The translations under genes were made by a program, and so were the position numbers. The notes under the pieces are model-generated. The model did not search any database and was not told where the DNA came from. It worked only from the letters and a program-made list of their open reading frames with translations. From IMG/VR virus record IMGVR_UViG_2925939204_000004, positions 1 to 23,505 of that record: a DNA stretch of 23,505 nucleotides, one strand, 5' to 3'. Shown one piece after another: positions 1-17,749 of this stretch; the stretch's first letter is position 1; each line of letters starts with the position of its first letter. The stretch is from a virus (lineage: Duplodnaviria > Heunggongvirae > Uroviricota > Caudoviricetes).

Positions 1-141
1 TTACTGCTTACACTGTAAGAACGCCGCAAACTCCGCTCCCCAGAAGCTCATCCGTATTTCACACAGCGAACCGTGCAACATCCAGATGATGAGGATTGCC
101 GTCACGCAGAACGTGATGGCCGTAAGCGATTTTTGCGACAT
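1..141 (-). CDS. Hok/Gef-family type I toxin (46 aa)
   Basis: Minus-strand ORF, ATG at 139-141, TAA at 1-3. Translation MSQKSLTAITFCVTAILIIWMLHGSLCEIRMSFWGAEFAAFLQCKQ has one hydrophobic helix and the Hok-family C-V-T...S-L-C-E-I-R signature. AAGGAG lies 9 nt upstream. Gene ends at the window edge. Confidence 0.65.
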   Translation of the reverse strand: MSQKSLTAITFCVTAILIIWMLHGSLCEIRMSFWGAEFAAFLQCKQ

Positions 142-271
142 AGCACTTGCTCCTTTTCCGGAGAGGCGCTAACCTTTCACTTGTCAAGGTAATGCGGTTA
201 GGGCCTCGGTTAAACAGAGATGTTTTCCGGGGCCTTTCCACATCTGGCCTTCGGGTATTCCCTCCGACCAT
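59..271 (-). CDS. mok-like overlapping frame (70 codons) covering the hok start
   Basis: A 70-codon ORF with ATG at 269-271 overlaps the hok gene in another frame, as mok does in hok/sok loci. No clear SD and no similarity argument, so this rests on the overlap geometry alone. Confidence 0.3.
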   Translation of the reverse strand: MVGGNTRRPDVERPRKTSLFNRGPNRITLTSERLAPLRKRSKCYVAKIAYGHHVLRDGNPHHLDVARFAV

Positions 272-331
272 CAGCCGAAAGGCACCCGCGCGTAATCTAT
301 CGCTTTTTTGTTACTCCGGCAATTCTGCCTG

Positions 332-592
332 TTAATTCTGAGGTAAAGGCAAGCTCATCTGATTGTTTCCCCTGTGTGAAGCTGGCAGCTCATGCCACGG
401 GATACCTTCTGAAGAGTGGATGCCGGAGGCGTGTTTCGATGTGAATTTATGGAAAGCTTCCAGTGTTGAGAAGCATACGCCGCATTCCAGGTTGTTACAC
501 TGGTAATACTTTTGCCGCACGGTGTTTGAATCATTTTCCGGACGACTGGTGCGGATACGGGCAGATGCGCCACAAAGCGGACAACGGAACAT
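332..592 (-). CDS. ogr: Ogr/Delta-family zinc-finger late transcription activator
   Basis: Translation starts MFRCPLCGASARIRTSR...YYQCNNLECGVCFS, matching the CxxC...CxxC Ogr signature of P2. The ORF is 86 aa against about 72 for P2 Ogr, so the C-terminal end is uncertain. Confidence 0.8.
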   Translation of the reverse strand: MFRCPLCGASARIRTSRPENDSNTVRQKYYQCNNLECGVCFSTLEAFHKFTSKHASGIHSSEGIPWHELPASHRGNNQMSLPLPQN

Positions 593-703
593 AGCGACCT
601 CCCTTAACGTAGTGCTGTCGCTAGTTTAGGCTGAACTTGCTCAGACTCCAACTGATAGTTCGTTTTGTTTACTGATGCCGTAGAAAGGTCTCTTAGCAAG
701 AAT

Positions 704-726
704 AACCCCAGTTTAACACTGGGGTT
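704..726 (-). terminator. Hairpin (8-bp stem AACCCCAG / CTGGGGTT, 7-nt loop) downstream of the 742-1407 gene
   Basis: Perfect inverted repeat 18 nt after the stop of the minus-strand cargo gene, followed on the minus strand by a moderately U-rich stretch (AUUCUU). Confidence 0.4.
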
Positions 727-741
727 GCTTGCAACAGAGCG

Positions 742-1407
742 TCAATTTTTAAGAGCACTGATACAGAAAAATTGCATGACATTTTTCTTTATTGATTTAA
801 ATAAGCTAAACATTGTGACAGGTTCAAAGCTAGTTAACTCGATGAATTCCTCTCTCATTTGAGAAAGTAACAGCTGACGTACTGATTCAATTTCTGCTGT
901 TTGTTTTCTCAAATATCTTGAGAAAACAAGTAGTTCATCAGCTGTTTTGTTTTGGCCATTTATAAACGTAACAGGTTGCCCTGGCTTAGATATGAGAAAA
1001 AATTGGTTAATTTTATCAAGTAATGGTGGAATTATTTTTTTCCATTCAGCCCATTCTTTTTCACGATGAAACTCCAGACTGTGCTGACATGTTCTTAGTT
1101 GCTGTATATCAATCGCCCAGACCTCACTCTCATCGAGGCAATCTTTCCATTTGCTAATTACATTAATGTCAAATTTTTTGTTCGGTAGATAATTATCTTT
1201 GGCGTGCGCTTCCAGTATAGAGGCAAGAGTACCTGTATATTGCATCAAATTGGTAGATGCTCGGTTTACTAGCTCTGATATTCGATCTAGTTGAGTTGTT
1301 CTAATCTCAAGTGCTTTCTTTTTACGTTCATTTCGTAAAGCAAAATATGCAGCAAGGCAGACTGCAGCAACTGTGGCTGCTGGTGCGATAAAAATTTGCA
1401 TATTCAT
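742..1407 (-). CDS. AT-rich hypothetical membrane-anchored protein (cargo between D and ogr)
   Basis: ORF with AAGGA SD 8 nt before ATG at 1405-1407 (the internal Met of the tracked ORF). N-terminal hydrophobic helix MNMQIFIAPAATVAAVCLAAYFAL, then about 200 hydrophilic residues. GC content is visibly lower than in the flanking D and ogr genes. No family recognised. Confidence 0.5.
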   Translation of the reverse strand: MNMQIFIAPAATVAAVCLAAYFALRNERKKKALEIRTTQLDRISELVNRASTNLMQYTGTLASILEAHAKDNYLPNKKFDINVISKWKDCLDESEVWAIDIQQLRTCQHSLEFHREKEWAEWKKIIPPLLDKINQFFLISKPGQPVTFINGQNKTADELLVFSRYLRKQTAEIESVRQLLLSQMREEFIELTSFEPVTMFSLFKSIKKNVMQFFCISALKN

Positions 1408-1601
1408 AACATGGATCCTTTGACATGGCATTTATGGGGGCTATTTCAGCAGTAATCATTTGTGTGTAAATTTGTTTGCTACAAATTAACATATTCTAAT
1501 GTAAGGCTCTTCTGATTTTGACACCGGGTAGGCTGTCAGATTGGTTATGATTCTTGCTGTAAGCGCGTTAGCAAATGTCAGGGCTAATGCATCTAAGTTG
1601 T

Positions 1602-2868: not shown

Positions 2869-4053
2869 ATGAGTGAAACTCGTTTTCATGGTGCCCGTGT
2901 TACGGAAAATACCGACCTGGTAACAGCGATTAACGATGTTGATTCCAGCGTTATCGGTATCGTGGCAACGGCGGATGATGCGGACGCGAAGCTGTTCCCG
3001 CTGAACAAGCCCACACTGCTGACCCGCGTCAATGACGTGCTGGGAAAATGCGGAACAACGGGGACGCTTTATCGTGCGCTTAAGGCCATCGCAGACCAGG
3101 TGAGCACAAAGGTGATCGTCGTTCGCGTGGCTGAACACAAAGAAGAAGACGAAAAGACGCAGGATCAACTGGTTATCGGTGGTTCTGAGGATGACGGCAG
3201 CTATACGGGGATGTATGCGCTGCTTGTTGCAGAGCAGGATGAAAGCATCGGATACCGTCCGCGTATTCTGGCCGCGCCGGAGCTGGACACGGAGGCGGTG
3301 ACAAAATCCCTGTGCGTGATTGCGGGTAAACTGCGCGCATTTGTGTATGCCTCATGTCACGGCTGTAACACGATGGCTGAAGCGATTACCTACCGCCAGA
3401 AATTCAACGAACGTGAAGTGATGCTCTTATGGCCGGACTTCATCGCCTACAACCCGAAAAGTGGCGAAAACGAAACGTTCCCCGCGCCTGCTTATGCGTG
3501 CGGCCTTCGTGCGTACATTGACCATGAGCAGGGCTGGCACAAATCGCTGTCCAACGTTCCGGTTAAAAATGTGCTGGGGATGTCGAGGCATGTGTTCTGG
3601 TCGTTGCAGGCCGAAGACAGCGATGCCAACAGCCTCAACAACAAAGAAATCACGACCATTATTCGTCGCAACGGGTTCCGCTTCTGGGGCAACCGCACAC
3701 CGGAAACGAACGCCTACATTTTTGAGGTGTACACCCGAACCGCACAGGTGCTGGCTGATTCAATTGCGGAAGCGCAGTTTGAAACCATCGACAGTCCACT
3801 GACGCCTGCGAACGTGAAGGATGTTATCAGTGCCATCAGGGCAAAACTGGATTCACTGGTGACTGCCGGGAAACTGATTGGCGCGGAGTGCTGGTATGAC
3901 GTGGTGGATAACAGCACCACGGATTTACGTCAGGGGCGTGTGCGTATTCGCTACAAATATACGCCCGTTCCGCCACTGGAAGACATGGAGCTTTACCAGA
4001 CGTTTACTGATGAATACTTTGAACCCGCATTTGCGGTGCTGGGAGGTGCCTGA
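2869..4053 (+). CDS. FI: Contractile tail sheath protein (P2 gpFI family)
   Basis: 394-aa ORF with a FPLNKP motif near the N-terminus and sheath-like length. Its stop overlaps the FII start (TGATG). Confidence 0.9.
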   Translation: MSETRFHGARVTENTDLVTAINDVDSSVIGIVATADDADAKLFPLNKPTLLTRVNDVLGKCGTTGTLYRALKAIADQVSTKVIVVRVAEHKEEDEKTQDQLVIGGSEDDGSYTGMYALLVAEQDESIGYRPRILAAPELDTEAVTKSLCVIAGKLRAFVYASCHGCNTMAEAITYRQKFNEREVMLLWPDFIAYNPKSGENETFPAPAYACGLRAYIDHEQGWHKSLSNVPVKNVLGMSRHVFWSLQAEDSDANSLNNKEITTIIRRNGFRFWGNRTPETNAYIFEVYTRTAQVLADSIAEAQFETIDSPLTPANVKDVISAIRAKLDSLVTAGKLIGAECWYDVVDNSTTDLRQGRVRIRYKYTPVPPLEDMELYQTFTDEYFEPAFAVLGGA

Positions 4054-8540: not shown

Positions 8541-9719
8541 TTATAAAGAATTGCTACTTTCTAATTCTGGGTTTCTGGATCTATTTTTACAACCTAAATC
8601 CGAGTGGTAATTCGGTATATCGTTTGTCAAATCTTGTTTGATAGCATTAATTAAGATCATTATGTCGAATTTATGCATATCGTCGCCCCCTTCAGACCTT
8701 AGATGTTCGGATGTGGTGAGTTGAGTCGCTAATTTGCTGTTTGGCCCCCACACAATATTATTTTCGAATTTTCCTTCATGCATTCTGTTATTATATATAC
8801 AGTATTGTCTAATGTTTAATGCACTGGCTAAATGTACAATGGCAGTATCTACAGTTATAACAAAATCAGCATGGCGAACCAATGCAAATGAACATCCGGC
8901 ATCAGAAAATGGAGATAGAGACACATTATCCAATCCATTGTGATTAATCTGTTTTCCCATATTAAAAACTATTGTGTGATATCCCTTAAGGTTATTAAGG
9001 TAAGCTAGTACTTTGTTTATCTGTTCATCAGATAAGGTTCTGCTATTCTGAGAGCCATAAGGGTTAAATATAACTAATTTTTTGTTTTTCTTCCTGAATT
9101 CATTTGCAACAATATTTGCTGGTTCATATATTTTGTTGTCAAAATTAAGCGCTGCAGCATAATTATTATTTTTTATCTTTAGTAAAGATAAAACTTTTTT
9201 CATTCTTTCAGATGTGTGAATGGAACGATTATCGATTATATTTGTATCAAAAATAGTTACGGCAGGATGATTAAAACAGATAGAGTGTTTAGGTCTAAGT
9301 AAATGTAGTGTTTGCAATCTGGTTATCGCTGTGTTATCAAAATTTGAGAAGTCAACAACAAGATCTACATTCAGTTTTTTTATCTTTGCTTTTAGTTCGT
9401 TAAATTTATTTTTCTCGTAAGATATAAAGGCATCCACGCCAACAATATCAGTAAAGAGGAATGATACTCTTGAAGGTGCTATCACATATACCACCATACC
9501 GGATTTTTGAAGTTGTTTAATAAACCCTGAGGTAACGATGCCGTCACCAATGGCTTGCATGTGCATGAAAATGCACACTGTTTTATAACTATCCGGCTGT
9601 AATGATGTTTTCCTTCTGTATCGCATTTTTAGAAATGCCAGTCTGGCCTTCGTCTTTATCTTTTTTGTTTTAATATTTCGCTGTCTGTTAAGCTGTTTTA
9701 ATGATGAAATAACATTCAT
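8541..9719 (-). CDS. GT9-like (heptosyltransferase-fold) glycosyltransferase, AT-rich cargo
   Basis: Very AT-rich ORF. N-terminal VCIFMHMQAIGDGIV...VYVIAPS and C-terminal KKLVIFNPYGSQNSRTLSDEQ and ADFVITVDTAIVHLASALNI resemble GT9 motifs. Start uncertain: the tracked ORF begins at TTG 9779 and the ATG at 9719 has only a weak SD. Confidence 0.5.
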   Translation of the reverse strand: MNVISSLKQLNRQRNIKTKKIKTKARLAFLKMRYRRKTSLQPDSYKTVCIFMHMQAIGDGIVTSGFIKQLQKSGMVVYVIAPSRVSFLFTDIVGVDAFISYEKNKFNELKAKIKKLNVDLVVDFSNFDNTAITRLQTLHLLRPKHSICFNHPAVTIFDTNIIDNRSIHTSERMKKVLSLLKIKNNNYAAALNFDNKIYEPANIVANEFRKKNKKLVIFNPYGSQNSRTLSDEQINKVLAYLNNLKGYHTIVFNMGKQINHNGLDNVSLSPFSDAGCSFALVRHADFVITVDTAIVHLASALNIRQYCIYNNRMHEGKFENNIVWGPNSKLATQLTTSEHLRSEGGDDMHKFDIMILINAIKQDLTNDIPNYHSDLGCKNRSRNPELESSNSL

Positions 9720-9813
9720 AATGGTACCCTGAAATTCCAAATCACACATGTCATCCGAAATGAGCAGGGTACTATACAAAAAACTGGACTACAATGGTTT
9801 GAAATGAAAGCCT

Positions 9814-11504: not shown

Positions 11505-12467
11505 TTAATCGTCCGGATAAATGGTAATGACTTCACCGTCGTAAGTTGCTGCCGCCGCGAAAATATCCCCCGGAATTTCCTGAATGATATTCAGCCCTGT
11601 CATGTGGCGGCTGACCGGGCGGGCATCAGCAATCAACCGCTCCATTTCCAGATACATTTCCTCCGTCACGCCACTGTCCAGCGTGCCGACTTCAACGGTA
11701 AATGTTCCCGGTTCTCCGCCGAACTCCCACCACTCAGACACGCGAATGAGGTATCCCAGCGGCTCAATGGCCCGGCGCAGTGCGCTGATGGTTCCTTTGT
11801 GTCGGTGTATCAGCCATGCATCACGAATCACCTGTCGCTTTGTCTCTTCCGGCCAGTTGCGATCCCAGCGGTCAACGGAAAACGCCCAGGCGAGATAAGG
11901 CAGCAGATGCACCGGGCAGGTGTCCGGCGACCACAGCGTGTTGAGGTCTACCGGAATGTCTGTAACGTCCTGAAGCAGCTTGTTGGTGCTGAAGTTGGAC
12001 TCATCTGCGTGAGACGTGCCGTTGAAACCGATCATGATGCGGTCAAGCGCCACCTGCCGGGCAATCTGTGTGCTGACGCGTGACTGAAAATCAGGGTGTG
12101 CCGCCCAGGCATCAAGCTGCGGATACGAAATAAACGTGTCGTAGTTCACCTGTTCGCACTGATATTTACGGTTTTTCAGATCAACCACGTTATTCGGGTT
12201 ACGGCGTTTTGTGCCGTCATAACTGGTATTCGTGCGCGCAATCGGCCCGGTGGTGTCCAGGAGGATTTTTTCGCCTTTCTGGTCGGTCACACCGAACACG
12301 TTAATTTTTTTTGTAAATTCAGTGCTCTCCTTTACTGCGTTTTCAAAACGCTGCTGCACCGAGGGTTCCACGGTAAATCGCGATACCAGTGCAGATACCG
12401 GGATGTTGTTAAGCGACGCCTGCTGCGCCATATAGCAACCCAGCTTGTTGCGGGTAATATCTGACAT
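11505..12467 (-). CDS. Chimeric ORF: N-terminal half of major capsid protein gpN fused in frame to tail protein gpI (deletion remnant)
   Basis: Residues 1 to about 172 resemble gpN (FTVEPSV, RKYQCEQVNYDTFISYPQLDAWA, IMIGFNGT). From about 11965 downstream the protein resembles gpI (LWSPDTCPVHLLPYLAWAFSVDRWDRNWPEE, LGYLIRVSEWWE, MERLIADARPVSRH). Confidence 0.7.
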   Translation of the reverse strand: MSDITRNKLGCYMAQQASLNNIPVSALVSRFTVEPSVQQRFENAVKESTEFTKKINVFGVTDQKGEKILLDTTGPIARTNTSYDGTKRRNPNNVVDLKNRKYQCEQVNYDTFISYPQLDAWAAHPDFQSRVSTQIARQVALDRIMIGFNGTSHADESNFSTNKLLQDVTDIPVDLNTLWSPDTCPVHLLPYLAWAFSVDRWDRNWPEETKRQVIRDAWLIHRHKGTISALRRAIEPLGYLIRVSEWWEFGGEPGTFTVEVGTLDSGVTEEMYLEMERLIADARPVSRHMTGLNIIQEIPGDIFAAAATYDGEVITIYPDD

Positions 12468-12502
12468 CACCAGATTCATAAAAAATTTGCTCCTTTGTCT
12501 TA

Positions 12503-14638: not shown

Positions 14639-15157
14639 TCATTCGAAACTGGCAAGAATCTGTTCTCGAACAGAAGATTTCATCGTTAACCCACGATCTA
14701 GGAAAAATTGGAAATGCATTAAGGCTTGTTGTTTGTGTATAAGTCTCCTGCGCACAGCCTCTTGAAGTAGCCCTCCGTGGCGGGCGGCTTTTACACCGCG
14801 TTCCGCACACGTTTTATAAACCGCATTATCCGCCGAAAGACATGTTGCATCATGTATTCTCGCGTTAACAACGCAGCTTATGTCCGCATACTTCAATGCT
14901 CTCCTGCGATTTTTTATCTCAGCCATTTCAATAAAATGTTCAGGTTCGTAATCATTGGTGAAATTGTATGGAAGTTGCAGGCGTGTAAGCTGTTCCTGAA
15001 CATCAAGATTGTATTTAGCTTTTAGTTCCTCGCAGACATAGGGGTCAATCCACACACCACCCGGGTAAATTTGCCAGATAATATCTAAGCATTTACCTTC
15101 GTAAAAATCAGACAGTACATTCGTATCGATAACACATCTGGGGCATTCAAACGGCAT
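14639..15157 (-). CDS. PIN-like (VapC/DUF4411-like) putative nuclease; toxin or effector candidate
   Basis: Starts at ATG 15155-15157, overlapping the upstream gene's stop by 11 nt. N-terminus CVIDTNVLSDF with downstream acidic residues (CEELK, IHDATCLSADN) spaced as in PIN folds. AT-rich. Confidence 0.6.
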   Translation of the reverse strand: MPFECPRCVIDTNVLSDFYEGKCLDIIWQIYPGGVWIDPYVCEELKAKYNLDVQEQLTRLQLPYNFTNDYEPEHFIEMAEIKNRRRALKYADISCVVNARIHDATCLSADNAVYKTCAERGVKAARHGGLLQEAVRRRLIHKQQALMHFQFFLDRGLTMKSSVREQILASFE

Positions 15158-16292
15158 CCTCTCCGGCCTCCTGTTCGTCGTACCATTCATCCAGAAGATT
15201 GCTGAGAGCTTTTCTGTCTAATTCTAAAAGTTCAGATATGAAGGTTTCCGACGCGGAACCGGCTTCCCATGCTTTACGCGATAAGACGGTTAGGCGACCT
15301 TTATAATTTAGTGCTTCCCTAATGGGATTTGGCTCGTGTCTCTTCCAACCTTTACGATTGGCGGTTGCCCATAGGTATCTAGTGTTTTGTTGATTAATTA
15401 AATTACATTTACTAAGACGATCGATGATGCAAGTGGCTGATACTCTGAAAATGCTTTTTAGTCTAAGGACGGTTTCCTCATACGCCCATCCACCACCTTG
15501 CATGACGAATTGTTTTCGCAATGCGCTTTCTGGTACCAAAAAACAAGCAGCAAAGTGATTAGCAACTTTTTCTTCCGGTGAAATTGCTTTGCCATTAGTT
15601 TTATAGCTTTTAGCAGGGCCATGATACTCATCACGGTGGAAGATAAGATGAGCATATTCATGGCAAATACTGAAGATTTGACGTTCTATTGAAATGCTGT
15701 CGTGAACATTTACATAAATCGCGGTACCGTATTTGTTCGAAAACGCAGAAAATCCGAATACCATCCCTTTATCGGTTTCTTCGCGATTGAACGGGATTAC
15801 TCGAATATCCGATGCTTCCAAAATGGCTACAATGTCACCAACGCAAGTAGCGTTTCCTATACCAAGACGGAAACGTTCTTCCATAGCCTTATCTTCGACT
15901 CTTCGCAAATCTTCTGCTTTGGCGGTAAAAATAGGCATTGAGTTAGGAAGATCTTCTGGCAAATTAGCATCAGCAGCTTCCTCAATTGCATTGATATTTT
16001 TTAACTTTTCAATCAACTCATTGCGAAGTTTGGCATCCAACAAATCCGGACTATCTGCTCGCATTGCAAAACGAAACTCGCCATCATCTTGCTCATAAAA
16101 ATACCCGATAGGCTTATCGAAAATCTTGCAGAGCATGATGAGTTGGGTAACGCTTGGGACGCCTAACGCCTGCTCAAACTTACTGTAGGTTTGACGAACA
16201 ACACCGATCGCATCTGCGACGGCGCTTGCACTCATTCCCGCGTCGTTTCTGGCCTGAACCAAGCGTTCTGCTATACGCTGTTGAATGTTCAT
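15147..16292 (-). CDS. XRE-family HTH fused to an ImmA/IrrE-type (COG2856/M78) zinc metallopeptidase
   Basis: N-terminal HTH (QRIAERLVQARNDAGMSASAVADAIGVVRQTYSKFE) and an intact HEXXH motif in SICHEYAHLIFH. AGGTGA SD precedes the start. AT-rich. Confidence 0.7.
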   Translation of the reverse strand: MNIQQRIAERLVQARNDAGMSASAVADAIGVVRQTYSKFEQALGVPSVTQLIMLCKIFDKPIGYFYEQDDGEFRFAMRADSPDLLDAKLRNELIEKLKNINAIEEAADANLPEDLPNSMPIFTAKAEDLRRVEDKAMEERFRLGIGNATCVGDIVAILEASDIRVIPFNREETDKGMVFGFSAFSNKYGTAIYVNVHDSISIERQIFSICHEYAHLIFHRDEYHGPAKSYKTNGKAISPEEKVANHFAACFLVPESALRKQFVMQGGGWAYEETVLRLKSIFRVSATCIIDRLSKCNLINQQNTRYLWATANRKGWKRHEPNPIREALNYKGRLTVLSRKAWEAGSASETFISELLELDRKALSNLLDEWYDEQEAGEDAV

Positions 16293-16446
16293 ACGTCACC
16301 TGAATTTAACAATGGTGGCTCTTATGGGTTTAGATTGGTTAATTATTACTAACATTATGAATGGAGAGTTGCAAAAATCATAGTTAAATTATGCAAATTT
16401 CATGGAGCGTGATGTGGTGTGGGTTCACACTCTCTGCTGATTACAT

Positions 16447-16467
16447 CCAGGGCGGTTTCCGCCCTGG
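16447..16467 (-). terminator. GC-rich hairpin (CCAGGGCGG ttt CCGCCCTGG) after parR
   Basis: Perfect 9-bp stem 7 nt after the ParR stop; no U tract. Confidence 0.3.
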
Positions 16468-16473
16468 CTCTGC

Positions 16474-16785
16474 TTACTCAGGAAATAGCGCCCGGATATT
16501 TCCGGCCATCTGACTGGTTATCTGTGCGGTTGGTACTGGCTGTGACACGGGGCGTTCTGTCCTGGTTTGTGTCACGGATAACGCCTCATCGTCAGCCCAT
16601 GCAGCCAGTCGGTAAGCCTCTGCCGGATTCATTTTCAGAAGTGCCAGCCCGGCCAGAAAAGCCACGCGTTGGCCGCTTTTGCGGGCTTCTGGTGTAAGGC
16701 TGTCCAGCCAGGCGCATGCTTCGCCTTCGTTCTTGACGGCGGCGGGCTTCAGATAGAAACTTATCCGTCTGGTTGGTGTCGTCAT
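16474..16785 (-). CDS. parR: ParR/StbB-like centromere-binding adaptor
   Basis: Start at ATG 16783-16785 with AAGGAG SD, 4 nt after the parM stop. N-terminus RRISFYLKPAAV...AWLDSLTPEARKSGQRVAFLAGLAL resembles the ParR ribbon-helix-helix region. Confidence 0.65.
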   Translation of the reverse strand: MTTPTRRISFYLKPAAVKNEGEACAWLDSLTPEARKSGQRVAFLAGLALLKMNPAEAYRLAAWADDEALSVTQTRTERPVSQPVPTAQITSQMAGNIRALFPE

Positions 16786-16789
16786 TGGT

Positions 16790-17749
16790 TTACTCCTTGT
16801 CCATTGCGTACAGCCCATTAACCAGAGCAAACTGTGGCACCCCGTCCGCGATGAAAGTCGCATTAACTCCGCAGGCTTCGCGGATAGCGGGTGCCACAAT
16901 CTCCGCCCCGCCACCGACAACCATCACCCGCCCGTAACCCGAAAAATCCGCCAGCGCGCGGATCACGCGTTGTTTCAGTGTTTCTTCCTTTTCACGAATA
17001 ACCGCCATCAGGCTGGCGTAATGCGCGTCATTGTGGATGTGCTGGCGCAGCCAGGCTTCATCATGGCGATGTTCGATAATGGTATTGGCGATGTGGTGAC
17101 TGGTGCGCATACCGTTAGTGGCCATCACCGACAGTACGGCATCGGCCATCAGAGAAACGCCTACGTGTGGATCGCAAAACACCTGGCTGATACCTGCCAG
17201 TTGCCCCTGAACCTTTGCCACATCCAGCGTGGTTCCGCCCAAATCCACAATCAGCAGGGATTCAAACGGACTCATGTCAGCCAGTGCCTTAAAGCCAGCC
17301 GGAATGGATTCAGGCATAACCCGCACGTTACGGATAGTGAATGCCTCACCGTTCTGGTACTCCACCGGGCGCATGACGTTCGCTTTTTTGCGGTTGATGT
17401 TGGCCATGTCCGGCTGTGCGTTTGTGTCGAAATATTCGCTCAGTGGCAGGGTGACAACCACATCCACCTCCTGTGGCGTGATGCCTGATTTGACCAGCGC
17501 GTGATGAATGGCAATGACATTCACATCGCTGTACTGGTATTGCGTGTCGGTCGTCTGGACAAAGCGATCGCTGACCGGATCAAAACCATAGCGCACGCCA
17601 TCAAGCATGTAGTTCGCGGGCTGCGTGCCACCGAACGGCGCAGACCATTCCGACTTGAAGCTGTTCGGGCTGATGGCGTTGCGGCGTTCGCCGTTCTCAG
17701 TCCATGCCAGCTTGATGTTGGTGGAGCCGTCATCGATACAAATTTTCAT
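16790..17749 (-). CDS. parM: ParM/StbA actin-like partition ATPase
   Basis: MKICIDDGSTNIKLAW...ISPNSFK...YQYSDVNVIAIHHAL...VMPESIPAG...LIVDLGGTTLD...VVGGGAE aligns along its length with plasmid R1 ParM from memory. Confidence 0.85.
   Translation of the reverse strand: MKICIDDGSTNIKLAWTENGERRNAISPNSFKSEWSAPFGGTQPANYMLDGVRYGFDPVSDRFVQTTDTQYQYSDVNVIAIHHALVKSGITPQEVDVVVTLPLSEYFDTNAQPDMANINRKKANVMRPVEYQNGEAFTIRNVRVMPESIPAGFKALADMSPFESLLIVDLGGTTLDVAKVQGQLAGISQVFCDPHVGVSLMADAVLSVMATNGMRTSHHIANTIIEHRHDEAWLRQHIHNDAHYASLMAVIREKEETLKQRVIRALADFSGYGRVMVVGGGAEIVAPAIREACGVNATFIADGVPQFALVNGLYAMDKE

Follow-up and report, generated by a model that had tools for sequence, protein, structure and literature searches.

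A predicted membrane protein of an unclassified family in a Z/fun-type cassette between genes D and ogr of a P88-like prophage

Membrane-located proteins that exclude superinfecting phages are known from several temperate and virulent phages, as for example HK97 gp15, T4 Imm and Sp, P22 SieA and lactococcal Sie2009. In P2 itself, exclusion of T5 is annotated for fun(Z), which lies in a cassette between genes G and FI. The hotspots named for P2-like phages in the literature surveyed are A-Q (old/tin), Z/fun, a site near int and one 'within the tail genes'. A review (PMC8987985), crediting Nilsson et al. 2004, states that the inverted repeats on both sides of fun allow site-specific recombination. 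In this paper we describe a gene that lies between the tail gene D and the late-gene activator ogr in IMG/VR virus record IMGVR_UViG_2925939204_000004. We call it the cargo gene, and the whole stretch analysed, positions 1 to 23,505 of that record (23,505 nucleotides), is called the window. Prophage hotspot cargo in a Z/fun-type cassette is already known as a kind. What is new is the protein, which belongs to a previously unclassified family.

The insert that carries the cargo gene shares several properties with the P2 fun(Z) cassette. Both have low GC and non-essential cargo, each has a fixed place behind the final gene of a late tail operon, and they have in common a boundary element of about 100 nt that follows the stop codon of the upstream gene. 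They differ in their site, which is D-ogr for the window cassette and G-FI for fun(Z), and in their proteins, which are unrelated (221 aa and predicted to be membrane-anchored, against the 528-aa Fun(Z)). They also differ in their ends: in the window cassette only the left repeat passes our profile and the right end keeps the outer part, whereas P2 fun(Z) has an inverted pair.

Two further comparisons concern the protein. Like the superinfection-exclusion proteins named above, it is encoded by a small, prophage-borne, stand-alone gene that the phage can dispense with, and its product is predicted to reside in the cytoplasmic membrane as theirs does; in this comparison, made by sequence only, no similarity to them was found with PHROG or Pfam profiles. 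Sister prophages have genes like pifA of the F plasmid, and other genes for single-protein abortive infection, in this D-ogr slot, again as single-gene cassettes of similar GC. The PifA-like proteins are KAP P-loop nucleoside triphosphatases (NTPases) of about 720 aa, whereas the cargo protein has no NTPase or nuclease motif.

The cassette and its boundary element

The features of the D-ogr region are as follows.

332..592, minus strand: ogr, late-gene activator and conserved flank of the hotspot (Pfam Ogr_Delta, E=5e-14; RefSeq annotation)
623..651, minus strand: inferred sigma-70-like ogr promoter, with -35 TTGGAG (651..646), a 17-nt spacer and -10 TAAACT (628..623)
625..633, no strand: degenerate ogr-side copy TTTAGGCTG of the 9-bp direct repeat TCTAAGTTG, from alignments of filled and empty junctions
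726..704, minus strand: terminator-like hairpin, 16 nt past the cargo stop codon, AACCCCAGTGTTAAACTGGGGTT then ATTCTTGC
742..1407, minus strand: cargo gene, 221 aa, RefSeq start ATG at 1407 (WP_001057121.1)
1408..1508, minus strand: 5' region of the cargo gene, best promoter candidate TCAAAA-17-TAGAAT with its -10 at 1498..1493
1509..1599, minus strand: degenerate boundary repeat (left inverted repeat), nhmmer E=7e-10, the only match in the window
1592..1600, no strand: D-side copy of the 9-bp direct repeat TCTAAGTTG, directly after the D stop codon
1602..2711, minus strand: tail gene D, 369 aa counted from M45 of a long open reading frame (ORF), conserved flank of the hotspot (Pfam Phage_GPD, E=4e-17; PHROG 52, E=3e-167); in relatives the RefSeq length of D is 1110 bp

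The original prediction, made from the sequence alone, had placed a 222-aa gene between D and ogr. The gene is indeed there, and its length by the RefSeq start is 221 aa. Its ATG at 1407 is preceded by an AAGGA ribosome-binding site 9 nt upstream. The longest frame of the ORF runs from 742 to 1431 on the minus strand (229 aa) and a longer start is possible. We are confident that the ORF did not arise by chance, because its ratio of non-synonymous to synonymous substitution rates (dN/dS) is 0.24-0.33 and because homologues that are only 19-40% identical have conserved its length. The insert as a whole (636-1601) measures 966 bp with a GC of 0.374, and over 700-1500 the GC is 0.34-0.42, compared with about 0.50-0.60 in D and beyond. 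The AT-rich upstream region and the downstream hairpin, both noted in the original prediction, were confirmed. The hairpin consists of 9 pairs (5 of them G-C) with a loop of 5 and a weak T tract, and it is kept to 100% in a 92% identical E. coli variant. The 194 nt from the D stop codon to the cargo ATG (1408-1601) are 95% conserved between the variants, which is above the coding region. A palindrome, AATTTGT-N5-ACAAATT (1465-1491), follows closely on the downstream side of the best -10 candidate and could possibly be an operator.

That P2 has ogr directly after D holds in the sense that its gap is 81 nt and contains the annotated ogr promoter. In empty relatives of the same genus as the window prophage, alignments of the junction show 42 nt between the D stop codon and the ogr ATG, and empty sites have a single copy of TCTAAGTTG. 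The P2 promoter occupies the position that matches the one inferred in the window. The latter sits inside the ogr-side end of the cassette, a part that is conserved among the cassettes of this junction, and the other cassettes there have TTGGAa/g-17-TAGAAT.

The flanks of the junction were matched in 1201 of 5426 complete E. coli genomes. The insert is present in only 56-57 of these 1201 (about 5%), always on the chromosome, and the carriers include the reference strains E2348/69 and O55:H7 CB9615. We additionally sampled 80 IMG/VR loci with a 98-100% identical ogr. The 42-nt empty junction was found in 33 of them and the insert of the window in 6, while 39 carry other inserts of 1.1-2.8 kb, of at least 14 types and with a GC of 0.33-0.43; the remaining 2 were not scorable. 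In total the junction accepts at least 15 types of cassette with one or two genes, of 0.9-2.8 kb and a GC of 0.33-0.43, and annotated E. coli loci show the cargo on either strand. Among the cargos are a PifA-like KAP NTPase (E=2.6e-64, locus L023), DUF2971/PDC-S31 (E=5.6e-27), a PsyrT-like phosphoribosyltransferase with a partner gene, GmrSD_N with HNH, PIN_12 and PIN_4, DUF3800, a SEC-C-motif protein, a weak match to RiboL-PSP HEPN and an alpha/beta hydrolase, besides several without a recognised family. Since most relatives are empty and at least 14 other inserts are found at the same site, the junction between D and ogr in P88-like prophages is a hotspot for cargo, with many defence-like genes. 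The P2-like hotspot literature that we surveyed, which names old/tin, Z/fun and minor sites, does not name this junction as a hotspot.

The presence/absence polymorphism, the alternative cargos, the low GC, a 74% identical copy in an unrelated lambdoid prophage and the upstream boundary repeat together strongly support that the window insert is a horizontally acquired, mobile single-gene cassette. The original prediction had already proposed a cargo gene here and had suggested a survey of the junction across related prophages; the gene is absent from most of them.

The boundary repeat is what links this insert to fun(Z). The D-side ends of most D-ogr cassettes share about 100 nt with the core CACAGAG-N20-CTGACAGTCCGCTCTGTGCCAGAAGCGGAC. 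Our nhmmer profile combines 56 copies from IMG/VR with seven D-side cassette ends and the copy in a Kluyvera prophage described below. Its match in the window forms the outer half of the AT-rich region upstream of the cargo gene. In P2 the same profile detects one copy behind gene G (E=2e-27) and another, partial and inverted, beyond fun(Z) (E=1e-5), at 1266-1367 and 3425-3484 of locus L210, and this pair brackets fun(Z). As 1509-1599 copies the repeat that brackets fun(Z), the insert can be placed on sequence grounds among the known Z/fun-type cassettes. From the summary in the review (PMC8987985) and the profile scan of P2, the element is likely the inverted repeat that was described around fun(Z) in 2004.

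The element is widespread. An exact-pattern scan of IMG/VR gave 95 stretches, and 56 distinct copies were aligned. In most of these 56 it comes straight after the stop codon of one conserved gene, and the sequences become unrelated right where the element ends. The conserved gene is taken to be the tail-fibre assembly gene because of annotated examples (L111 and gene G of P2). Loci with two copies have them as inverted pairs in 47 of 51 cases, bracketing 0.66-5.4 kb. A BLAST search with one copy hit 981 places in 874 E. coli genomes, all of them unannotated and intergenic, and the places sampled were the Z/fun hotspot of P2-like prophages and variable regions by YeeP-like GTPase and Ag43 genes. 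Two overlapping hairpins in the element are mostly maintained, with a few double changes, which is modest evidence for a structure. The element may act as a recombination site or as a terminator. Rfam has no family for the element or for the 5' region of the cargo gene, and the core sequence was not found in the literature searched.

The right end of the window cassette is less regular. The profile does not match a second, inverted copy in the window, and its ogr-side end can be aligned with other cassettes only over the outer part of their right ends. We considered a transposon-like insertion with long terminal inverted repeats. This is unsupported for the window cassette, whose terminal inverted repeat is not significant (z=0.7), and it is true of some sister cassettes, such as that of locus L038 at the same junction (z=9.9).

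The protein family and its genomic contexts

One N-terminal transmembrane helix had been predicted for the protein, and residues 5-24 are its sole hydrophobic segment (Kyte-Doolittle mean 2.1), followed by RNERKKK. By the positive-inside rule the protein would be anchored in the inner membrane with its N-terminus out and the remaining ~195 residues in the cytoplasm. This location is a prediction, and the single hydrophobic helix is conserved across the family. We rejected a lipoprotein or secreted protein, as there is no lipobox, the Cys in the helix is Trp in most homologues and the hydrophobic stretch of 20 residues is followed by a basic cluster. A toxin-antitoxin pair was rejected as well: no small partner ORF is conserved, and the upstream ORFs of 45-54 aa, which overlap either D or the start of the gene, do not move with it.

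A word-indexed search of 5.8 billion proteins found close relatives only. When 1.84 billion cluster representatives were searched exhaustively with a profile, 23 clusters matched, with full-length members of 214-235 aa. All members with a named source are Enterobacteriaceae 'hypothetical proteins' without Pfam domains. The original prediction had recognised no family, and Pfam, PHROGs, PADLOC and PDB sequences likewise gave none; they also showed no homology to a housekeeping or phage structural protein. At 19-40% identity the homologues keep their length, and the best-conserved stretch is residues 1-40, that is the transmembrane helix and the juxtamembrane region. Conserved residues in the helix are P9, T12, A20 and L24, followed by the juxtamembrane motif LRN(D/E)xRKK; further along, LEFHR (H114, R115), W122 and P128-L129 are conserved. 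The gene is under purifying selection, with a dN/dS of 0.24 in the comparison with the Kluyvera copy and of 0.33 in that with the 92% identical variant from E. coli.

An AlphaFold model from five close homologues was unusable (pLDDT 41) and was superseded by one from an alignment of 24 sequences (pLDDT 80.5, pTM 0.66). In the latter the transmembrane helix continues as a helix of 69 residues, against which helices 81-137, 156-192 and 199-219 are packed. The predicted protein is therefore a membrane anchor with a generic cytoplasmic four-helix bundle. The 4HB sensor domains of Tar/Tsr, NarX/NarQ and TorS differ in both respects that define them, a periplasmic bundle between two transmembrane helices and a match to Pfam 4HB_MCP, neither of which the cargo protein has.

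The genomic contexts of the homologues are diverse. The 74% identical copy is found in a lambdoid prophage of Kluyvera, between replication genes and rusA/Q. It shares with the window positions 735-1549 only, which is the ORF plus about 140 nt of its 5' region, so that the 1408-1508 part has travelled with the gene. In this Kluyvera locus (L108 3077-4652) the homologue adjoins a 408-aa gene with a pore-forming colicin domain, beside which a 100-aa gene on the opposite strand may encode the immunity protein. Another homologue is found in a lambdoid prophage of Citrobacter. A Klebsiella island at ssrA has one together with a KAP NTPase, a Klebsiella plasmid has one between KAP NTPase/TIR and SMODS+S_4TM/RES, and in Pseudescherichia one lies in a chromosomal island beside cysH, upstream of SMODS+S_4TM and an nSTAND ATPase. 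Of the homologues in integrative and conjugative elements (ICEs), one is beside HipA and one between TraC and TraU in the transfer operon. Other plasmid homologues directly follow Rep3 or ParA, and a further homologue sits between DUF4238 and DUF4145 genes. In every context the gene is stand-alone, with intergenic gaps on both sides. The boundary element is found 100-280 nt upstream of the homologues in the Kluyvera (1e-22) and Citrobacter (9e-9) lambdoid prophages and the Klebsiella ssrA island (3e-4).

Two divergent homologues, one chromosomal and one on a plasmid (L009 8001-11199; L016 8001-11233), lie 520-575 nt upstream of a SMODS+S_4TM pair, which resembles a cyclic-oligonucleotide-based anti-phage signalling system (CBASS). 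A fixed partnership with CBASS was rejected, as the pair is absent from the other nine contexts examined, and we treat it as shared island DNA.

Candidate functions of the cargo protein

Our favoured reading, which we hold tentatively and at somewhat short of even chances, is that the cargo protein acts at the inner membrane to protect the lysogen against other phages or mobile elements. A role in exclusion or abortive infection, as suggested by the original prediction, is plausible from context, because the neighbouring hotspot cargos are largely defence-like and distant homologues are found in defence islands and mobile elements. This reading supposes that the gene, which has a conserved 5' region and a terminator-like hairpin, is expressed in the lysogen. 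If so, the cytoplasmic bundle of the protein made there would sense a cue of infection, and the conserved membrane helix would then associate with itself or engage a membrane partner. As a result, genome entry would be blocked, or a membrane function would collapse and the infection would be aborted. Contact with the invader would fall to the variable bundle. Conservation peaks in and just after the transmembrane helix, which suggests a role for the helix beyond that of an anchor.

Several observations weigh against this proposal. Guilt by association says little about an individual gene, and some cargos at D-ogr, as for example the alpha/beta hydrolase and several of the unrecognised ones, are not obviously defensive. 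Profile searches of the cargo protein in Pfam, PHROGs (with the exclusion families that it contains) and PDB sequences gave nothing meaningful. PADLOC-DB 2.0 gave a best E of 0.02 to an unrelated restriction endonuclease model, with no consistent match among 24 family members. Nor does the sequence place the protein in a described Sie/Imm exclusion family: no member of the cargo protein's own family has a PHROG or Pfam match below E=0.003. Expression in the lysogen is not helped by the promoter search, in which no sigma-70 consensus match of at least 9/12 was found for the cargo gene. Furthermore, insertions of IS1 or IS3 break the gene or its cassette in several genomes of E. coli, and phage 520873 (L002 5920-6318) has a frameshifted copy of the gene. 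These interruptions show that selection on the gene is not universal; it is dispensable and sometimes lost.

The protein might instead serve lysogenic conversion or host fitness in a way that has nothing to do with phage defence, with a part in envelope or stress physiology, colicin or toxin tolerance, entry exclusion or the maintenance of mobile elements. We consider this unlikely, although several of the contexts described above fit it: the homologue between TraC and TraU inside an ICE transfer operon, those right after plasmid Rep3 or ParA genes, and those beside the pore-forming colicin gene and beside HipA. Cargo without a role in defence, for instance toxins and partition systems, is also known from P2-like hotspots (Rousset 2022; PMC9122126). 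On the other hand, the sampled cargos at D-ogr are dominated by defence-type nucleases and NTPases, and the profile searches found no similarity to known exclusion, immunity or stress proteins.

A function that serves the phage itself, in lytic growth or establishment, is in our view very unlikely. The protein would then act in counter-defence, lysis timing or on the host membrane, and its gene would be co-transcribed with D in the late operon. The cargo gene does have the orientation of D and ogr, it has no strong promoter of its own, and only 194 nt separate its start codon from the D stop codon; counter-defence genes are moreover found in variable phage regions (PMC9122126). However, most phages of the genus, P88 included, lack the gene, and its homologues are found on plasmids, ICEs and chromosomal islands, which have no lytic cycle. 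The boundary element lies between D and the cargo gene, cargos at this junction are found on either strand, and the gene persists in a prophage that is unable to form particles, as its capsid::tail-I fusion ORF shows.

Least probable of all is a selfish or near-neutral passenger, either a membrane toxin-like addiction gene or a gene of no current benefit carried along by the cassette: the disruptions in several genomes and the very small size of the family (23 clusters among 1.84 billion representatives) would fit, but the dN/dS of 0.24-0.33, the length and motifs kept at 19-40% identity, the retention across at least six kinds of genomic context and the lack of an adjacent antitoxin-like ORF all speak against it.

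The host prophage and wider reach

The backbone of the prophage is that of a P88-like Xuanwuvirus and not of P2 proper, and the nearest named phages are P88, 520873 and 500465-2. Identical DNA is found in E. coli chromosomes, adjoining ihfA. In Xuanwuvirus D and ogr are transcribed divergently from the FI-U genes, and in the window the sheath, tube, E, tape-measure and U genes follow beyond D on the opposite strand. The fusion ORF lies at window 11505-12479; from it follows that most genes for head completion, lysis and the baseplate are deleted, and the prophage is defective. For the related locus L001, the annotation shows the matching pseudogenes.

At the prophage end beside ogr there is a hok/sok-type toxin-antitoxin module (window 1-287), with the following ORF:

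1-141, minus strand: Hok-like ORF at the start of the window

The match to the sok RNA at 128-287 scores 48 bits, less than the 59 that Rfam sets as its threshold. A gene similar to glycosyltransferase family 9 (E=4e-6; window 8541-9779) lies between U and the gene for tail-fibre assembly. Its position is the equivalent of another cargo slot, and the boundary element was not detected there. The region from the replication gene to the head genes (window 14639-17749) is the equivalent of the old/tin hotspot. It carries a helix-turn-helix and Peptidase_M78 gene that overlaps a 183-aa gene (with a PIN domain according to the annotation of L001), and also a ParM-type partition system.

If the cargo gene were inert, it would be merely one more uncharacterised moron. 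A much bolder possibility has two parts. The protein would found a new anti-phage system consisting of one membrane-acting protein, and the boundary repeat would serve a cassette system as its site of recombination; this cassette system would move defence genes among lambdoid prophages, genomic islands and the hotspots of P2-like phages (Z/fun and D-ogr). This combined proposal is speculative and we regard it as decidedly unlikely. The mechanism by which defence genes are exchanged between unrelated mobile elements has been left open (PMC13586616), and if the proposal were true, the cassette system would be that missing mechanism.

The hotspots of P2-like phages are a productive source of new defence systems. 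The D-ogr site offers a compact and easily mined list of candidates, with several recognisable defence genes and several unknowns. With its occurrence at D-ogr, at P2 fun(Z), in lambdoid prophages and in a Klebsiella island, the boundary repeat gives a sequence handle on the movement of genes between unrelated elements.

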